In this document: positions 591 to 6,089 of the stretch, in pieces | Position numbering within the stretch: position 1 is the stretch's first letter | Layout of the letters: the number at the start of each line of letters is the position of its first letter | DNA from: an uncultured virus (IMG/VR IMGVR_UViG_3300043803_001696) | Taxonomy: Duplodnaviria > Heunggongvirae > Uroviricota > Caudoviricetes | IMG/VR virus record: IMGVR_UViG_3300043803_001696 | Direction: 5' to 3' (one strand) | Length of the DNA: 20,000 nucleotides | Made by a program: the position numbers and the translations under genes | Notes under the pieces: generated by a model | What the model was told of the DNA's origin: nothing | Seen by the model: the letters and a program-made list of their open reading frames with translations, nothing else | Database searches by the model: none

Positions 591-2036
591 ATGAAGCTGA
601 AGGAAGGAGCCAAGGCAGACAAGATTGCTCGCACAGGAAGAGTCCAAAATTGGATGGATGATACCAATGGACGCTTGCCCGTATCTTGCACAGTTTTTGT
701 AGTTGAAGATTCAATGGAAGGGGAGGAAGGCATTGAAGCATCTTGGCGCTTTGTTTCCCATGGTCTGCGTAATGGTGCAGGAGTTGCTGTTCATTTATCT
801 AATTTGCGCGGCAAAGGGCATGAAAATGGCAAAGGGCTTGTAGCAAGTGGTCCTGTAAGTTTTGGCAAGATTTATTCCACTCTCAATGAAATTCTTCGTC
901 GCGGCGGCGTCTATAAAAACGGGGCTGTAGTATTGCATCTTGATTATGACCATCCTGATGCGCTTGATTTCCTGCAAGCTTCTAGGCAAGAACTTCCATG
1001 GGTGAAACGTTGTCTAAACGTAGACGAAAATTTCCTTGAACGTTCTTCTAAGGAGCTGATTGATACTCTCCTTAAAGGCATTGGCACTGGCGACATCTGG
1101 CTTAATAAGATTCGCTACAACGAAAAAGGCGAGCGCATTCGTGCCAATGTTTGCCTGGAAGTGTATCTCCCCCATCGTGGCACCTGCCTGCTGCAGCATG
1201 TCAATATGGGCGCCTGCTCCATTGAAGACGTGACAGGGGCCTTTGTGGAGGGCATGGAGCAGCTCTGTGAGCTTCATGGCAAAACGGGCGTGGGCGCCAC
1301 AGGCGAATATCTTCCTTCTGTGATTGATAGACAAGTGGGGCTTGGCATGCTTGGGCTTGCTAATTTCCTTTCCCTCCATGGCATTTCTTATGCTGACTTC
1401 GGCAAAGCCCTGAAAGCCTTCAATCAAGAAGATCCGCGAGACTGGTATGAAATTATGGACAAGCCAGTGGGTAATGCCGTATTTGCCATCTTCCAAGGTA
1501 TTAGTGGTGCTGCTGAAGTGGCTCGTGAAGCTGGAATGGAACGCGCCTTCTGCATTGCTCCTACAGCCTCTTGCTCCTACCGCTATTTAGATTCCAAAGG
1601 CTTTACGACAGCCCCTGAAATCGCCCCTCCCATTGCTCGTTTAGTTGATCGGGATAGTGGCACTTTCGGCGTGGAAAGCTTTGACTATGGGGAAGTGGAA
1701 ATTGCTGCTGAAGTGGGCTGGGACAATTACAAACTGGTCGCAGATGAGCTGGTACGTCTGTATCAAAACACTGGTCTTTTCCATGGCTATTCGTATAACT
1801 CATGGAGCGACATTGTTATTTACGACGAGGCCTTCTTGAAAGATTGGCTAGAATCTCCTCAGACAAGCCTCTACTATTCGCTGCAAGTTCTCCCGGACAC
1901 GCAACGAAAAGATGATGCTTACGCTGCCTTAGACGACGAATTTAAGACCATGTTTGGACTCAGCGATACTGAGCCCTTAGGAGAGACTGTCTCTTGTGGC
2001 ATAGATGCTGGTTTCTGCGCTGCATGTGCAGAGTGA
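591..2036 (+). CDS. nrdA: ribonucleotide reductase large (alpha) subunit, minimal cyanophage type (Cyano SP / class O-slash-like clade)
   Basis: Motifs: LPVSC (proximal Cys), finger loop NVCLE, TCLL, IAPTASCS, SLYY tyrosine dyad and C-terminal CAAC. About 481 aa with no ATP cone. Start moved to ATG 591 because the upstream TTG extension overlaps a terminator-like hairpin. Confidence 0.95.
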   Translation: MKLKEGAKADKIARTGRVQNWMDDTNGRLPVSCTVFVVEDSMEGEEGIEASWRFVSHGLRNGAGVAVHLSNLRGKGHENGKGLVASGPVSFGKIYSTLNEILRRGGVYKNGAVVLHLDYDHPDALDFLQASRQELPWVKRCLNVDENFLERSSKELIDTLLKGIGTGDIWLNKIRYNEKGERIRANVCLEVYLPHRGTCLLQHVNMGACSIEDVTGAFVEGMEQLCELHGKTGVGATGEYLPSVIDRQVGLGMLGLANFLSLHGISYADFGKALKAFNQEDPRDWYEIMDKPVGNAVFAIFQGISGAAEVAREAGMERAFCIAPTASCSYRYLDSKGFTTAPEIAPPIARLVDRDSGTFGVESFDYGEVEIAAEVGWDNYKLVADELVRLYQNTGLFHGYSYNSWSDIVIYDEAFLKDWLESPQTSLYYSLQVLPDTQRKDDAYAALDDEFKTMFGLSDTEPLGETVSCGIDAGFCAACAE

Positions 2037-2062
2037 CCCATCCTTCTCCTCCTTTTGTTGAT

Positions 2063-2082
2063 GGGGCCGCTTTGACGGCCCT
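2063..2082 (+). other. intergenic GC-rich hairpin between nrdA and nrdB
   Basis: GGGCCG (2064-2069) pairs with CGGCCC (2076-2081) around a 6-nt loop, followed by a pyrimidine-rich tract. Confidence 0.45.
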
Positions 2083-2123
2083 CTTCTGTCTGTTTTCATT
2101 CCTTTCCATCGCGCTTTCTAATA

Positions 2124-2858
2124 ATGACCGTCCTTGAAAAGAGCCCCTATTCAGCAATGATCGCCAAGAAGCGCCCCTGGCAAGCCACGCCAGTGGACAA
2201 TTCGCCTGTGAAGGAAGGCGCTGAATCCACGCTTTTCAAGACCATTGCTTTGCGCCACCTTGAACTGCCCGTGAAGGACTTGCTTGAGCAAGGCTTACAG
2301 AAGGAACTGCCTTCCACTCCTGGCATCATTGAGGCGTTGCGCTCCAACCAGAAGGATGAAGAGCGTCATGATGAAGCGCTGAACTATGTTGCTGCCGCCT
2401 ATGGCACTGACGAGAAGGCAGAGCGAGAAGTGCAAAACATCTTGAAGGTGTGGATGGAGCACCCCGCCCATCCAATTCATAAAGTGTCCATTATTGAGCG
2501 TTCTATCTTCTTCGTTGCCCTGCCGTTCTTCCGCTTCAATGGCAACATCGGCATGCGCACGGTGTCAGCAGACATTAGCCGTGACGAGCAAGTGCATTGT
2601 GGCGTTCATGGTTTGGTGGCCAAGGAACTGGGCGAAACGGAAACGGAAAGCCTTAATAAGCTGCGCATTGCCACTGCTGGCTGGCTGTTTGAGCACTTGG
2701 GCAAGAGCGATGATCAATGGCTCGACAAAAACGCTTGGATGCAGCGCTCTGAGCGCCTGTTCTGGGAAGGAAAGGCTTCTGGCATGGAAGACTCCCGTCG
2801 TAGCCGTCAAATCGCGTTCTTTGAAAGTTCAAACGTAAATCTTCCATGCTATGGTTGA
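2124..2858 (+). CDS. nrdB: ribonucleotide reductase small (beta) subunit, ferritin-like, cyanophage type
   Basis: Directly downstream of alpha. Di-metal ligand pattern E (RHLE), DEERH, E (IIER), DEQVH. C-terminus AFFESSNVNLPCYG. Leu, not Tyr, lies four residues after the first His ligand. Confidence 0.9.
   Translation: MTVLEKSPYSAMIAKKRPWQATPVDNSPVKEGAESTLFKTIALRHLELPVKDLLEQGLQKELPSTPGIIEALRSNQKDEERHDEALNYVAAAYGTDEKAEREVQNILKVWMEHPAHPIHKVSIIERSIFFVALPFFRFNGNIGMRTVSADISRDEQVHCGVHGLVAKELGETETESLNKLRIATAGWLFEHLGKSDDQWLDKNAWMQRSERLFWEGKASGMEDSRRSRQIAFFESSNVNLPCYG
2823..2855 (+). repeat. imperfect direct repeat, copy 1 (3' end of nrdB)
   Basis: 25 of 33 nt identical to 3516-3548, including a perfect 14-nt core AACGTAAATCTTCC (2832-2845 and 3525-3538). 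Confidence 0.9.
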
Positions 2859-2885
2859 CATTTGATTCCCTTCTTATGCTATGAT
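2855..2885 (+). promoter_or_regulatory. sigma70-type promoter for the HNH gene
   Basis: TTGACA (2855-2860, overlapping the nrdB stop codon), a 19-nt spacer, and extended -10 TGcTATGAT (2877-2885). The spacer is longer than optimal. Confidence 0.6.
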
Positions 2886-2886
2886 T

Positions 2887-2912
2887 ACGGGGTTAACCAC
2901 CCCGTTTTTTTT
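2887..2912 (+). terminator. intrinsic terminator hairpin abutting the HNH start codon
   Basis: ACGGGGT-TAACC-ACCCCGT, with a run of 8 T (2905-2912), then ATG at 2913. Confidence 0.7.
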
Positions 2913-3554
2913 ATGGAAGAAATCTGGAAACCTATTCCTGGCTACGAAAATTTATACGAAGCCTCAAGCTTGGGTAATATTAGATCTGTAGACAGGACTG
3001 TTTTAGATGAGCGAAATCAGAAGCAGCGCACGCGCACATTCAGGGGGAGACAATTGTCCCCAAATATCAATAAAGATAGCGGCCGTCATTCTGTCATGCT
3101 TTCTAAAGAAGGAAAGACAAAAAGATTCACAGTCGCTCGTTTAATTTGCCTGGCTTTTCATGGCTTGCCTCCAGAAGGGAAAAATTTAGTATTGCATTAT
3201 GACGACATTCATACAAATAATATGCCAGAAAACTTAAGGTGGGGCAATCACTTGGAAAATCTAGAAGATTGCGTTCGCAATAGAGGCTCTCATCCCCGTT
3301 ACATTGATGGCAGAAGCAATCGCAAGAGAGGACCAGTCGGGGGCGCCATCTTAAATGAGTATCAAGTAAGAGTGTTGAGGCGACTTCCTGACCTACGCTC
3401 ACTGCGAGGGTTGAGGGAAGACCTGGCCGAAGAGTGGGGAGTCGCTCCTTCTAGCATATCCAGCGCCAAATACAAACAAACAGCGTGGAACACGCTATCT
3501 CCTGTGCCGCTATGGGAAATCGCCAACGTAAATCTTCCTTCCTACGGCTCTTGA
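2913..3554 (+). CDS. NUMOD4 + HNH homing endonuclease with a C-terminal helical domain and an nrdB-derived tail
   Basis: N-terminal EEIWKPIPGYENLYEASSLGNIRS (NUMOD4); HNH_3-like VARLICLAFHG...VLHYDDIHTNNMPENLRWGNHLEN; ends in EIANVNLPSYGS. Confidence 0.92.
   Translation: MEEIWKPIPGYENLYEASSLGNIRSVDRTVLDERNQKQRTRTFRGRQLSPNINKDSGRHSVMLSKEGKTKRFTVARLICLAFHGLPPEGKNLVLHYDDIHTNNMPENLRWGNHLENLEDCVRNRGSHPRYIDGRSNRKRGPVGGAILNEYQVRVLRRLPDLRSLRGLREDLAEEWGVAPSSISSAKYKQTAWNTLSPVPLWEIANVNLPSYGS
3516..3548 (+). repeat. imperfect direct repeat, copy 2 (nrdB-like 3' end fused in frame to the HNH ORF)
   Basis: Encodes EIANVNLPSYG, compared with ESSNVNLPCYG at the end of nrdB. Confidence 0.9.
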
Positions 3555-3558
3555 CGCT

Positions 3559-3598
3559 GTGGGGCTTCCGCTATTGCTACATCGGAAGCCCCGCTTTT
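3559..3598 (+). terminator. terminator-like hairpin after the HNH stop codon (probably the original nrdB terminator)
   Basis: GGGGCTTCCG (3561-3570) pairs with CGGAAGCCCC (3583-3592), followed by GCTTTT. Confidence 0.65.
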
Positions 3599-3657
3599 CC
3601 CGCATAGAAAGCCCCGTCTTTCTTGTCTAGAGTTGATTAAAGACTTCTTCAAAAGCC

Positions 3658-3870
3658 GTGGGCGAGCGCAGGACGTTTGACACCCCCATTCGCTGCAAAT
3701 GGAACGCGCCCATTCATAATTTATTGAAAGCCATTGATAATCACACTGAATTATTTCTTCTCCATGGAGACCCTTGGCATGCCAAAAAGGCAGCAGAACT
3801 CAGGGCTTATGTTCACGAACTAAAAACTTGGATTCACAAAGAAGAACAAAATACCCTTGGTCAGATTTGA
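3658..3870 (+). CDS. hypothetical phage protein (70 aa)
   Basis: GTG start with a TAGAGT -10-like hexamer at 3628-3633; helical Trp/His-containing sequence; 3' end overlaps the antisense tRNA by 19 nt. Confidence 0.7.
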   Translation: MGERRTFDTPIRCKWNAPIHNLLKAIDNHTELFLLHGDPWHAKKAAELRAYVHELKTWIHKEEQNTLGQI

Positions 3871-3925
3871 ACTGACACTTGTCTGAGCTTAAATCAGATG
3901 CCTCTTCCTATTGGGCTACAAGGGC
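3852..3925 (-). tRNA. trnL: tRNA-Leu (anticodon UAA), 74 nt, short variable loop, no intron, CCA not encoded
   Basis: Minus strand folds into a cloverleaf: acceptor GCCCTTG/CAAGGGT with discriminator A; D arm GCC..GGC with GG in the loop; anticodon arm TCTGA-TTTAAGC-TCAGA; variable loop CAAGT; T arm GTCAG-TTCAAAT-CTGAC. Confidence 0.92.
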
Positions 3926-4083
3926 GTGAGACAGAACTTATCCCGCATTAGGGAATTAACAGGTGCGGCCTGTAGTTCTGTCAACAAGAACCATGAATGC
4001 TTCAACTCATCCACGGCATCTCCGAAACCAGCATTGACGAGGATGCTGGTGCCGTTGGCCAACGGGCTCCTGCAGGAAGCCCC
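3926..4083 (-). ncRNA. candidate structured RNA or long tRNA leader, family unidentified
   Basis: Dense helices: 3930-3938/3974-3982 enclosing two hairpins; 3993-3998/4005-4010; 4027-4034/4043-4050; 4013-4018/4050-4055; 4064-4068/4078-4082. Lies between a promoter and the tRNA. Confidence 0.5.
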
Positions 4084-4086
4084 AAA

Positions 4087-4115
4087 ATCTTAGCAGCGCC
4101 AGCTCCAAAACACAA
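4087..4115 (-). promoter_or_regulatory. sigma70-type promoter driving the structured RNA and tRNA-Leu
   Basis: Minus strand: TTGTGT, a 17-nt spacer, then extended -10 TGcTAAGAT; predicted start near 4080-4082. Confidence 0.65.
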
Positions 4116-4146
4116 CCGCTCCTTCTGAGCACAATTGCTTATGTAC

Positions 4147-4170
4147 GTGCCTTGCCTCTCGCAGGGGCAC
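4147..4170 (-). other. GC-rich hairpin downstream of the CP12-like gene (possible terminator or stabiliser)
   Basis: Minus strand GTGCCCCTGC-GAGAG-GCAAGGCAC; no clear U tract. Confidence 0.4.
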
Positions 4171-4220
4171 TACAACTTCCCTTTTCTGACCATGAAGGAT
4201 AAACAACAGTCCAACCATGG

Positions 4221-4451
4221 CTAGATGTCATAAAGCTTGCATCGCGGAGAATCAGGGAACAGCGAACATTCCTTGTCCCACCAATCCCCTCTGTCTTTCT
4301 CTCCATTGAGCCAATAATATTGCTGCATGTGGTGAGCGTAGGCCTTTTCAGCCAACTTGCGATCTTCCATGCTCACGCCAGGCTCTTGCATGGCATAAGC
4401 GGCTTCAATGGCAGCGTGAAACGCCTCTTCAGCAGCCCGAGAAAGAACCAT
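4221..4451 (-). CDS. cp12: divergent CP12-like protein (Calvin cycle inhibitor family)
   Basis: 76 aa ending in C-x3-P-x4-C-x2-Y-D (CSLFPDSPRCKLYDI), the CP12 C-terminal signature. TAGACT -10 hexamer 21 nt upstream. Confidence 0.6.
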   Translation of the reverse strand: MVLSRAAEEAFHAAIEAAYAMQEPGVSMEDRKLAEKAYAHHMQQYYWLNGEKDRGDWWDKECSLFPDSPRCKLYDI

Positions 4452-4475
4452 GGTGGAAACGCAAGTACGGCTAGT

Positions 4476-4664
4476 CTATTCAACGCTTTCTTTCTTTGCA
4501 AGTTGCTCCACCTTTAACTGCTGCTGCAGCTTTTTCAAGCGTGGCAGGAGCGAGGGTTCGTAAAAATGATCTGCTGCTAGCAGTTGAAGAGCAGTTTGCC
4601 TATCAGCTTCTAACAATGCAACAAGATACGACACCTCCTTCAAGGAAAGATAAAAATGCTTCAT
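4476..4664 (-). CDS. small helical hypothetical protein (62 aa)
   Basis: ATG ORF downstream of terL; TAGAAT hexamers upstream at 4683-4688 and 4700-4705. Confidence 0.65.
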   Translation of the reverse strand: MKHFYLSLKEVSYLVALLEADRQTALQLLAADHFYEPSLLPRLKKLQQQLKVEQLAKKESVE

Positions 4665-4712
4665 TTTTCAAAAAAGTCGATAATTCTAAATTCCTGAAAA
4701 TTCTAGTGGTGA

Positions 4713-6089
4713 TCAGCGTACCAGACTGTTCAGCCAATCAATATCATTATCCTTAGAGGCTTCAAGAATGGCACCAGCCAAGGCAAAAGCGTAGTCATCT
4801 ACTCCCACTTCTTTACCACCAGTTACTGCCCATTGCCCACTGCTTCTGTAGATAACACTGAGGTTTTTCAGTTGCTTGACGGCTTTCTCGTGAGGATACA
4901 TTTCAATAAGGCCAGCATTAAAGAGCTCCTTCATCTTGCTAAATGCTTTCATCTTGGTGCTAACGGACCAAGCAAGTTCAGCAATGGGGAAGTCTTTAGA
5001 CATGCTTTGAATGGTGCCAGAACTGTTGAACTGGTCAAGCACAATACTTTGAAAATCGTAAATGCGGTGGTGCTCCCTAATCCATTCTTCTACCTTGGCA
5101 ATATTCACTTCTTTCTTTCCGCCAATATCAAAATCAGGCTCAAAGGCGTGAAATTTGTCCACCACTAGGCGCTCACCTTCGTAATGCACAATGCAAGCAG
5201 TGTAATCATCTCGACCCACGCCACCACGAGCAGGGTCAAGGGCCAATACATATGTTCCCATTAGTTCACGCTGCGGAAACAAAATGCCCCTTTCTTTATT
5301 CACGGAAATGTCAACAATCTCCGCTGCCAACAATGCAGAGTTGTTCTTGGCAAACTGAGCACCATATTCCACCCAGAACTTATCAGGGTCGCGTTTTAGT
5401 TCAGCTTCAAGGAACGGACACCCCCATGGCAAATTTGGATTGACTGTCCAAGTGGCCAGGTTTTCCGCTTGCATGAACGGGTAGTCACCAGACGTGGCTT
5501 CGCAATAGTGTTGATAGAACAAGCCATCAGTGAGCCATGGCGAAGACAGTTCCAGGATGCGACCGTGCTTGCCAAACTGAGCGATGGAGGGAGACAGGGC
5601 TTGGTAGATGGCACCGGCGCCACGGTTGGCATCGCCTTCAATGGCAAAGCTCAGCTCGTCCATGATTAGCATCACCACGGCTTTACCACGAGAAGCACGA
5701 GCTGATGCGGGAATGGCCTGGAACACGCAATTATTGCTCACTTCAATCTCAGTGGCCGTCTCCCTAGTGATCTCACCCACCAAGGGAGAGTCCATCAACA
5801 ATTGACGGATGTTGTTCAGGGCAAGCTTGGCCTGGCTTTGATCGTTTGCAATGGTGAGGATGTAAAACTTTTCCGACTTTCTTACGCGCCTCTTGTATTG
5901 ATCTTCCAGAACAAAGCAGGCATAGAGCGCTGCAATGGAGGCCATGAGCGTCTTACCACAGCGTCGGCCTAGTGCCCACACAGCGTGCGTCTTGTCTCCA
6001 CCAAAATAAGAATCAAGAATGCGCTTCTGCTCAGGCCACAACTCTAATTGCAGAACTAGCTTGGCAAATTCACTGCATTTAAGCTTCAT
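4713..6089 (-). CDS. terL: terminase large subunit
   Basis: Q motif (LWPEQ), Walker A GRRCGKT, Walker B MLIMDE, coupling motif LSSP, and RNase H-like nuclease acidic motifs LALDPA...DDYTA, VLDQF, DDYAFALA. Confidence 0.95.
   Translation of the reverse strand: MKLKCSEFAKLVLQLELWPEQKRILDSYFGGDKTHAVWALGRRCGKTLMASIAALYACFVLEDQYKRRVRKSEKFYILTIANDQSQAKLALNNIRQLLMDSPLVGEITRETATEIEVSNNCVFQAIPASARASRGKAVVMLIMDELSFAIEGDANRGAGAIYQALSPSIAQFGKHGRILELSSPWLTDGLFYQHYCEATSGDYPFMQAENLATWTVNPNLPWGCPFLEAELKRDPDKFWVEYGAQFAKNNSALLAAEIVDISVNKERGILFPQRELMGTYVLALDPARGGVGRDDYTACIVHYEGERLVVDKFHAFEPDFDIGGKKEVNIAKVEEWIREHHRIYDFQSIVLDQFNSSGTIQSMSKDFPIAELAWSVSTKMKAFSKMKELFNAGLIEMYPHEKAVKQLKNLSVIYRSSGQWAVTGGKEVGVDDYAFALAGAILEASKDNDIDWLNSLVR

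Follow-up and report, generated by a model that had tools for sequence, protein, structure and literature searches.

The window analysed here is a 20,000-nt stretch of the 48.6-kb virus record IMGVR_UViG_3300043803_001696, whose source is lake-water metagenomes. It belongs to a phage genome, with terminase and portal-sized open reading frames (ORFs) within the window, and its closest cultured relative is the Synechococcus siphovirus S-CBS4 (69% DNA identity over window 1800-2855). At its ribonucleotide reductase (RNR) genes an HNH nuclease gene lies in the 3' end of nrdB, and nrdB and the nuclease ORF end in nearly the same codons. We refer to the inserted segment as the cassette and to the nrdB end lying behind it as the remnant; relatives are cited by L numbers (S-CBS4 is L001). 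The locus carries the following features.

591 to 2036, plus strand: class Ø RNR alpha, in an ORF open from 555 with a likely start at ATG 591
2124 to 2858, plus strand: nrdB, class Ø RNR beta, the ferritin-like small subunit of 244 amino acids, ending FFESSNVNLPCYG and stop (..NVNLPCYG-stop)
2832 to 2845, plus strand: repeat copy 1, codons N-V-N-L-P, still resident nrdB sequence
2847 to 2858, plus strand: substitute gene end C-Y-G-stop, cassette-borne, with the radical-transfer tyrosine retained
2859 to 2912, plus strand: cassette leader, with a -10-like element TGCTATGAT at 2877-2885, a terminator-like hairpin at 2887-2905 and a T run up to the HNH ATG
2913 to 3524, plus strand: NUMOD4-HNH homing endonuclease proper, 204 codons, delimited by Pfam and homolog alignment
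3525 to 3554, plus strand: displaced native nrdB end N-V-N-L-P-S-Y-G-S-stop, the in-frame C-terminus of the HNH ORF; repeat copy 2 is 3525-3538
3559 to 3594, plus strand: native nrdB terminator-like hairpin (-26.8 kcal/mol, z -3.1), now behind the HNH ORF

The initial annotation had remarked on the near-identical ends of nrdB and of the long HNH ORF (2862-3554, ending PLWEIANVNLPSYGS and stop; ..NVNLPSYGS-stop), and this likeness is real. A 32-nt direct repeat, 78% identical, connects 2823-2854 with 3516-3547 at a spacing of 693 nt and contains a 14-nt perfect core, AACGTAAATCTTCC, at 2832-2845 and 3525-3538. The eight common codons N-V-N-L-P-x-Y-G show three synonymous differences (P, Y and G) and one replacement (C/S). 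Counting direct repeats of 14 nt or more with copies no further than 1 kb apart, the whole 20-kb window has only three families, the nrdB-end repeat among them. The hairpin that had been noted after the second copy was also recovered, at 3559-3594. Metagenome assemblies can join strains at short repeats, and the locus might on that account be an assembly chimera of two nrdB alleles. However, the identical arrangement is present in three IMG/VR contigs from other samples (L002, L003 and L033), and independent Logan contigs from two runs, one of them not flagged as a possible source, cross both repeat copies without difference (X10 record 1, X15 record 8). The layout is, moreover, common to seven other lineages, and a chimera has next to no probability. 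A joint removing the 693 bp was absent from the assembled Logan contigs of four runs, a result with no bearing on excision because contigs cannot show rare variants. The RNA run X17 yielded two short contigs of a relative only.

The window matches its nearest relative, L007, through AACGTAAATCT, beyond which differences are scattered. The clearly cassette-borne part of nrdB is only the last three codons and the stop, and nrdB of the window is a hybrid gene whose body is resident and whose end came with the cassette. Searching IMG/VR with NrdB gave 111 relatives; the counts refer to the best 80 loci, which were retained. Among these, the 10 HNH-bearing or scarred alleles have nrdB ending at or directly after the tyrosine codon pair, and the 70 native alleles extend one or two residues past Y-G. 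Four of five other HNH lineages likewise end at or directly after the tyrosine pair (CYG-stop, MYS-stop, QYG-stop, SYG-stop); lineage D ends SYGR-stop. The leader behind this substitute end was compared across seven lineages, A to G, with L140 left out. Its hairpin (2887-2905), identified by a terminator scan and with a fold z of -2.7, is present together with a T run ending at the HNH ATG in all seven, and three of its predicted pairs show compensatory changes. The -10-like element of the leader is a putative promoter. An extended -10 motif resembling TGCTATAGT stands after the native nrdB stop in many relatives, directly so in L004, L007 and L074, and a similar motif follows the remnant in L085, L086, L087 and L095; TGCTATGAT at window 2877-2885 resembles it. 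There are hints that the left end of the cassette may derive from the nrdB end of a former host together with the promoter downstream of it.

The nuclease itself starts at ATG 2913, and all seven aligned homologs begin MEEIWKPIPGYE. Pfam assigns NUMOD4 (E 4.1e-17) and HNH_3 (E 1.1e-6), both exceeding the curated cut-offs, and residues H95, D97, D98, N102, N103, N107 and N116 are invariant across the seven lineages. The ratio of nonsynonymous to synonymous substitution rates (dN/dS) is about 0.05 in the three of seven HNH pairs with usable dS, synonymous sites being saturated between most lineages, and the gene is under purifying selection. Structure prediction from the seven-sequence alignment gave a mean predicted local distance difference test (pLDDT) score of 57.9, with residues 123-213 below 50. 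Near its end the window protein reads W-E-I-A, which aligns with W-D-M-A of the homologs, and the next 15 residues (ERLxGxxxGRDKPKR) are missing. Because E-I-A corresponds to D-M-A of the HNH homologs, the remnant starts at N (3525) and comprises nine sense codons and the stop. The earlier estimate of an insertion about 11 codons before the stop had counted E-I-A, which belongs to the nuclease, and is corrected accordingly to nine. Among GenBank phages, the best HNH matches are below 36% identity and are generic "HNH homing endonuclease" or NUMOD4 proteins.

HNH genes of the phages T4 and RB3 lie in group I introns of nrdB, according to the available part of a T4 review (PMC2988022), and the window ORF might similarly lie within a self-splicing intron whose removal would join NVNLP to SYGS-stop. 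Against such an arrangement, splicing is unneeded, nrdB having a complete end and stop ahead of the HNH gene, and intron families were absent at gathering scores from the window and 10 related loci and at E<=1 from 2600-3800. An intron is scarcely credible here. Group I and group II introns were rejected as candidates, no ribozyme core being recognised by covariance models.

HNH-less alleles of the same nrdB are found among close relatives, and one of them corresponds to the empty site that the initial annotation had predicted. In L005, NrdB is 96% identical to that of the window and ends EASNVNLPSYGS and stop (NVNLPSYGS-stop), directly before the same hairpin. Over 87 nt, L005 703-789 and window 3523-3608 share 88.5% identity. 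The structural part of the earlier proposal is supported: the cassette supplies a replacement end, and the HNH ORF continues in frame through the native end that was displaced. The hairpin of window 3559-3594 also occurs in L004, L006 and L041; in L005 it lies directly 3' of the nrdB stop. The closest genome, L007, is HNH-less as well: its identity to the window is 96.6% over 1-2854 and 95.7% over 3628-5264, its nrdB ends PSYGAA-stop, and in place of window 2855-3627 it has 1364 nt of different sequence with a phosphoesterase gene in it. Of the 80 retained loci, seven carry the HNH gene (L002, L003, L033 and L020-L023), three are scarred (L012-L014) and 70 have native ends; six of the last have less than 1.1 kb of downstream DNA and were assigned from the nrdB tail alone.

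The nuclease family is confined to this site. An IMG/VR scan with the HNH protein gave 57 loci, 15 close (at least 57% identity) and 42 distant (at most 46%), and a metagenome scan added six family members, none a closer variant of the window's own HNH lineage (A). nrdA and nrdB lie directly upstream at all 15 close IMG/VR loci, and an nrdB tail of the form FFE...LPxY lies directly upstream at all six metagenome loci, placing close homologs in the nrdB 3' end at 21 of 21 loci. By comparison, none of the 42 distant homologs lies near nrdA or nrdB, and none has an L-P-x-Y-G/S-like tail; the finding of such tails at unrelated loci, which had been named as evidence against the proposed insertion, did not materialize. 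Such a pattern, in which close relatives either have or lack the nuclease gene at a single constant position in a conserved gene, is a hallmark of homing endonucleases.

Occupied loci fall into lineages with the following ends and junctions.

Lineage A (this window): nrdB end NVNLP-CYG-stop; HNH end and remnant ..PLWEIA-NVNLPSYGS-stop
Lineage B (L085, L086, L141): nrdB end NTSLP-MYS-stop; HNH end and remnant ..GRDKPKR-NTSLP(S/A)YGR(A/G)-stop
Lineage C (L091-L094): nrdB end NVNLP-MYS-stop; HNH ..GRDK, a TGA stop, then in-frame remnant NNDLPQYGRA-stop
Lineages D, E and F (L087/L143, L090/L144 and L095/L096): nrdB ends SYGR-stop, QYG-stop and SYG-stop; HNH stops at a TAA within an out-of-frame remnant (..LNLPAYGKS-stop and similar)
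L140: nrdB end NTSLP-MYS-stop; remnant out of frame
Lineage G (L088, L089, L142): nrdB end ATSLP-MYS-stop; HNH ends GRD-KA-stop

Six junction types are represented: A, B and G read to the native stop, C uses its own TGA, and D/E/F and L140 are out of frame. Native nrdB ends downstream of the cassettes match local HNH-less alleles at 88-100%; in lineage G, the native nrdB end consists of AAAGCTTAG and the 140 nt after it and is 96.7% identical to that of L036. Decay is also seen, L145 being a frameshifted HNH copy with a G-type nrdB end and L012-L014 having kept MYS-stop, about 60 nt of leader and a remnant LPAYGQA-stop while losing the HNH ORF. The L144 remnant of lineage E reads LLNLPAYG and then stop, with TAG where L090 has CAA; it is decaying or, alternatively, represents a native allele with its end at Y-G.

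Several comparisons separate the history of the cassette from that of its host gene. The lineage C nuclease is 83-85% identical to those of B and G, whereas its NrdB is 62-63% identical to B/G and 83% to A, and the switch in relatedness is located at the nrdB end. The lineage C remnant and flank match the HNH-less L070 and L055 at 100% over 110 nt, compared with 83-85% upstream; similarly, L085 of lineage B matches the HNH-less L074 at 95.3% over 128 nt, versus 79% upstream. L085 and L086 are 98-100% identical per 100-nt bin across HNH and have unrelated flanks, and their remnants differ at 4 of 33 positions where about 0.4 would be expected at the HNH rate. L141, also of lineage B, has yet another remnant variant. 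Identity matrices and step changes at the borders thus reveal movement independent of the host gene, and together these sequences show that the cassette has moved between nrdB lineages, has decayed and has been lost in some. With synonymous sites saturated between most HNH lineages, the cassette is old, whereas the remnants are young and are best explained as the native nrdB ends of one invaded genome after another. The repeat did not arise as a target-site duplication upon insertion, for the two N-x-x-L-P copies of lineage C belong to different nrdB clades.

These patterns bear on the alternative of an ordinary phage nuclease that does not move, such as one assisting packaging close to the terminase, with the repeat arising from a single local duplication or slippage. 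HNH proteins found beside terminases commonly serve as packaging factors. Here terL (4713-6089) is encoded on the opposite strand some 1.2 kb downstream, and a terL is annotated in S-CBS4. Yet L007, 96% identical on both sides, does not have the gene; HNH and NrdB trees conflict; remnants match different HNH-less alleles at 88-100%; and the NVNLP and NNDLP copies of lineage C have separate origins, as noted, which a local duplication would not produce. We consider a resident, non-mobile nuclease highly improbable.

Very probably, then, window 2847-3524 is a free-standing NUMOD4-HNH homing cassette in the last codons of nrdB of an uncultured lake cyanophage, encoding an enzyme that would cut HNH-less alleles and bearing an incidental tail. 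Its anatomy, the empty-site allele, the fixed location of the family, movement between lineages and decay or loss are matters of observation. Without intron or intein, the cassette keeps nrdB intact by bringing its own short gene end (x-Tyr-Gly/Ser-stop), followed by the leader with its hairpin and then HNH, all set between two copies of the N-x-x-L-P codons; the native nrdB end (NVNLPSYGS-stop and terminator hairpin) is thereby shifted 693 bp downstream. Its operation would be as follows. The enzyme is predicted to cut HNH-less nrdB alleles in or beside the N-x-x-L-P-x-Y-G codons, and repair would copy the cassette in. The left end of the break would prime on donor nrdB, and the right end may pair with the remnant as right-hand homology, the remnant being the only conserved sequence on the right side because DNA past the nrdB stop differs even between close relatives. 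Retention of the tyrosine in the substitute end would preserve nrdB function. The leader hairpin probably stands in for the displaced nrdB terminator and limits HNH expression, a role resembling that described for T4 mobE in the available part of the T4 review, where a terminator within the gene limits its expression (PMC2988022). In the window lineage, loss of 15 HNH codons has joined the HNH frame to the remnant, so that the ORF ends at the old nrdB stop and is followed by the old terminator. The beta-like tail on the nuclease would be a by-product with no role of its own, and its fusion looks incidental because among relatives the remnant is in frame, behind a stop, or out of frame. Recoding for cleavage resistance, as suggested by the initial annotation, need not be invoked, since the presumed site is already divided by the insertion.

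Some observations weigh against this reading. No empty allele matches exactly: the remnant region of L005 is 11.5% divergent, and L005 has a phosphoesterase gene that is absent from the window. The window HNH, lacking 15 C-terminal residues, may be impaired. The nrdB frame is kept in four of six junction types against two expected by chance (binomial P ~0.10), and there may be a mild preference for in-frame junctions; we do not accept the excess as evidence, given that B, C and G share ancestry and are not independent. Finally, remnants are well preserved, with L-P-x-Y retained in lineages A-F. Such preservation fits recent capture from recipients, but may also reflect selection on the remnants.

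Whether the tail could have a function depends on the class of the RNR. Alpha matches Pfam Ribonuc_red_lgC (E 8.6e-19) and PDB 7URG (E 4.3e-206), and its homologs begin M-x-LKE; 7URG is the class Ø RNR of cyanophage S-CBP4, as given in the part of Burnim 2022 available (PMC9531940). nrdB has no Pfam match, a property that the same source reports for class Ø beta (Burnim 2022, PMC9531940), and the equivalent S-CBS4 gene carries a beta subunit annotation. The text available of that paper also describes class Ø beta as having a Y356-equivalent tyrosine, ending at the residue downstream of that tyrosine and lacking the class I alpha-docking extension of about 10 residues, with its mode of alpha contact unknown (Burnim 2022, PMC9531940). 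The window RNR, with its minimal S-CBP4-like alpha and adjoining beta of about 240 amino acids that ends just past the radical-transfer tyrosine, belongs to class Ø. From this tyrosine to the beta C-terminus there are one to three residues in all 80 of the best 80 related loci, and the window beta does not carry the alpha-docking peptide of class I, which runs about 10 residues past the tyrosine.

The initial annotation had suggested that the nuclease binds RNR alpha: NVNLPSYGS, with the radical-transfer tyrosine, would dock HNH on alpha, serving as a tether or competing with beta. In class I enzymes, peptides from the beta C-terminus dock on alpha and inhibit RNR. In lineages A, B and G, translation of the nuclease continues in frame into the tail, which is the same as native beta ends; the nrdB frame survives in most junction types; and all four L085/L086 remnant differences are synonymous. 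The synonymous pattern is nevertheless explained by different native source alleles, because the flanks of these two loci are unrelated. As class Ø beta lacks the docking extension (PMC9531940, in the portion available), the class I peptide premise on which the suggestion was built is not established for the window RNR. The fusion is, furthermore, not conserved among related cassettes: lineage G fuses two residues (KA) only, a stop precedes the remnant in C, and the frame is lost in D/E/F and L140. Binding of alpha by the tail is accordingly unsupported, and we judge a functional tail improbable. That the nucleases of lineages A and B gained a working RNR-alpha ligand, in the form of a class Ø beta end with its radical-transfer tyrosine, is likewise a slim prospect. 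If true, a selfish endonuclease would be drawn to the machinery that makes deoxynucleoside triphosphates for the phage, or would slow it down, and the motif would be direct evidence that class Ø beta meets alpha through its last residues.

The DNA behind the locus is variable, and one further feature of the window records a deletion.

3630 to 3680, plus strand: metallophosphoesterase 3' remnant, 16 codons and stop, ELIKDFFKSRGRAQDV and stop; the gene is otherwise deleted

Twelve of 13 residues of this remnant are identical to the C-terminus of the L007 phosphoesterase, and L005 790-1272 (483 nt) is replaced in the window by 3609-3627 (19 nt). A metallophosphoesterase gene lies behind nrdB in S-CBS4, L004, L005, L007 and L013. 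In S-CBS4 the gene at 2654-3091 behind nrdB is annotated "endonuclease VII", a different nuclease in the same variable slot. In some relatives an abiF RNA motif (Rfam RF03085) closely follows nrdB or the remnant (L004 1051-1087, 55.7 bits; L085 3784-3820, 48.9 bits; gathering score 37); the motif is absent from the window. Rfam and ARAGORN both identify a tRNA-Leu (anticodon TAA) at window 3852-3925 on the minus strand, and several relatives have a tRNA at the matching place. Related phage contigs carry Glutamine-II aptamers (RF01704; 34-40 bits, gathering score 33) at a distance of a few kb from nrdB, all on the minus strand (L021 5975-6031, L090 5319-5374, L085 5676-5729, L088 3966-4025 and L086 5166-5219); the window has no Glutamine-II riboswitch match at the gathering score.

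The arrangement described here implies that a homing endonuclease can inhabit the coding sequence of an essential phage gene by means of its own spare end, with no intron or intein. The codons occupied are those of the radical-transfer tyrosine in the little-studied class Ø RNR. Uncultured lake phages provide a natural series of empty sites, at least seven occupied lineages, a frameshifted copy and a deletion scar that would permit the target site and homing cycle to be worked out. The nrdB 3' ends and the chimeric HNH ORF will, in addition, mislead automatic annotation and RNR-based virioplankton phylogenies.

Homing endonuclease genes (HEGs) are known at other phage RNR loci. In the available portions of the sources, T4 mobE is a free-standing HNH endonuclease between nrdA and nrdB that targets nrdB (PMC2988022, PMC3653736), mobE of Aeromonas phage Aeh1 splits nrdA in two (PMC3653736, PMC2790892), and the I-TevIII intron resides in nrdB (PMC2988022, PMC3653736). 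As described there, mobE resembles the cassette in being an intron-less HNH gene at phage RNR genes, with co-conversion of neighbouring sequence and a terminator near the HEG. T4 mobE is intergenic, however, and Aeh1 mobE yields two polypeptides, whereas the cassette keeps nrdB whole, carries a replacement end and retains a remnant of the old end; the part of the T4 review available makes no mention of duplication (PMC2988022). Nuclease genes of phage ICP1 share with the cassette the position of a HEG at a switch point of relatedness between genomes, but duplication or replacement of a host-gene end is not described in the portion of that report available (Barth et al. 2023, PMC10448857). Like the class I beta peptide, the duplicated motif has a tyrosine equivalent to Y356 of the inter-subunit radical path; class Ø beta differs in ending one to three residues past that tyrosine, and peptide competition is therefore not established for class Ø (PMC9531940). 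The literature searched, including the available part of the T4 review, contained no description of a replacement gene end in phage.

The closest parallel lies in fungal mitochondria. Fungal "gene hybrids" made by mobile endonuclease ORFs (mORFs) were reportedly described by Paquin et al. in 1994, a report cited by Beaudet et al. in 2013. The available text of the latter lists gene hybrids in atp6, atp9, cox2 and nad3 of Glomus and in atp6 of Allomyces macrogynus (Beaudet et al. 2013, PMC3630166). There, as here, an endonuclease ORF sits in the 3' part of an essential gene, with an in-phase substitute C-terminal piece and the native piece downstream, and the native piece is closer to the native ends of relatives than to the inserted copy. 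In the window, copy 1 ends CYG-stop and the displaced NVNLPSYGS-stop matches L005. As far as these sources describe mORFs, differences are that the nuclease here is NUMOD4-HNH and not LAGLIDADG or GIY-YIG, that the host is a phage and not a mitochondrion, that the substitute piece is only about three codons and a stop, and that the nuclease ORF ends on the native stop in three of six junction types. The cassette works like a mORF gene hybrid but is not a mORF by descent.

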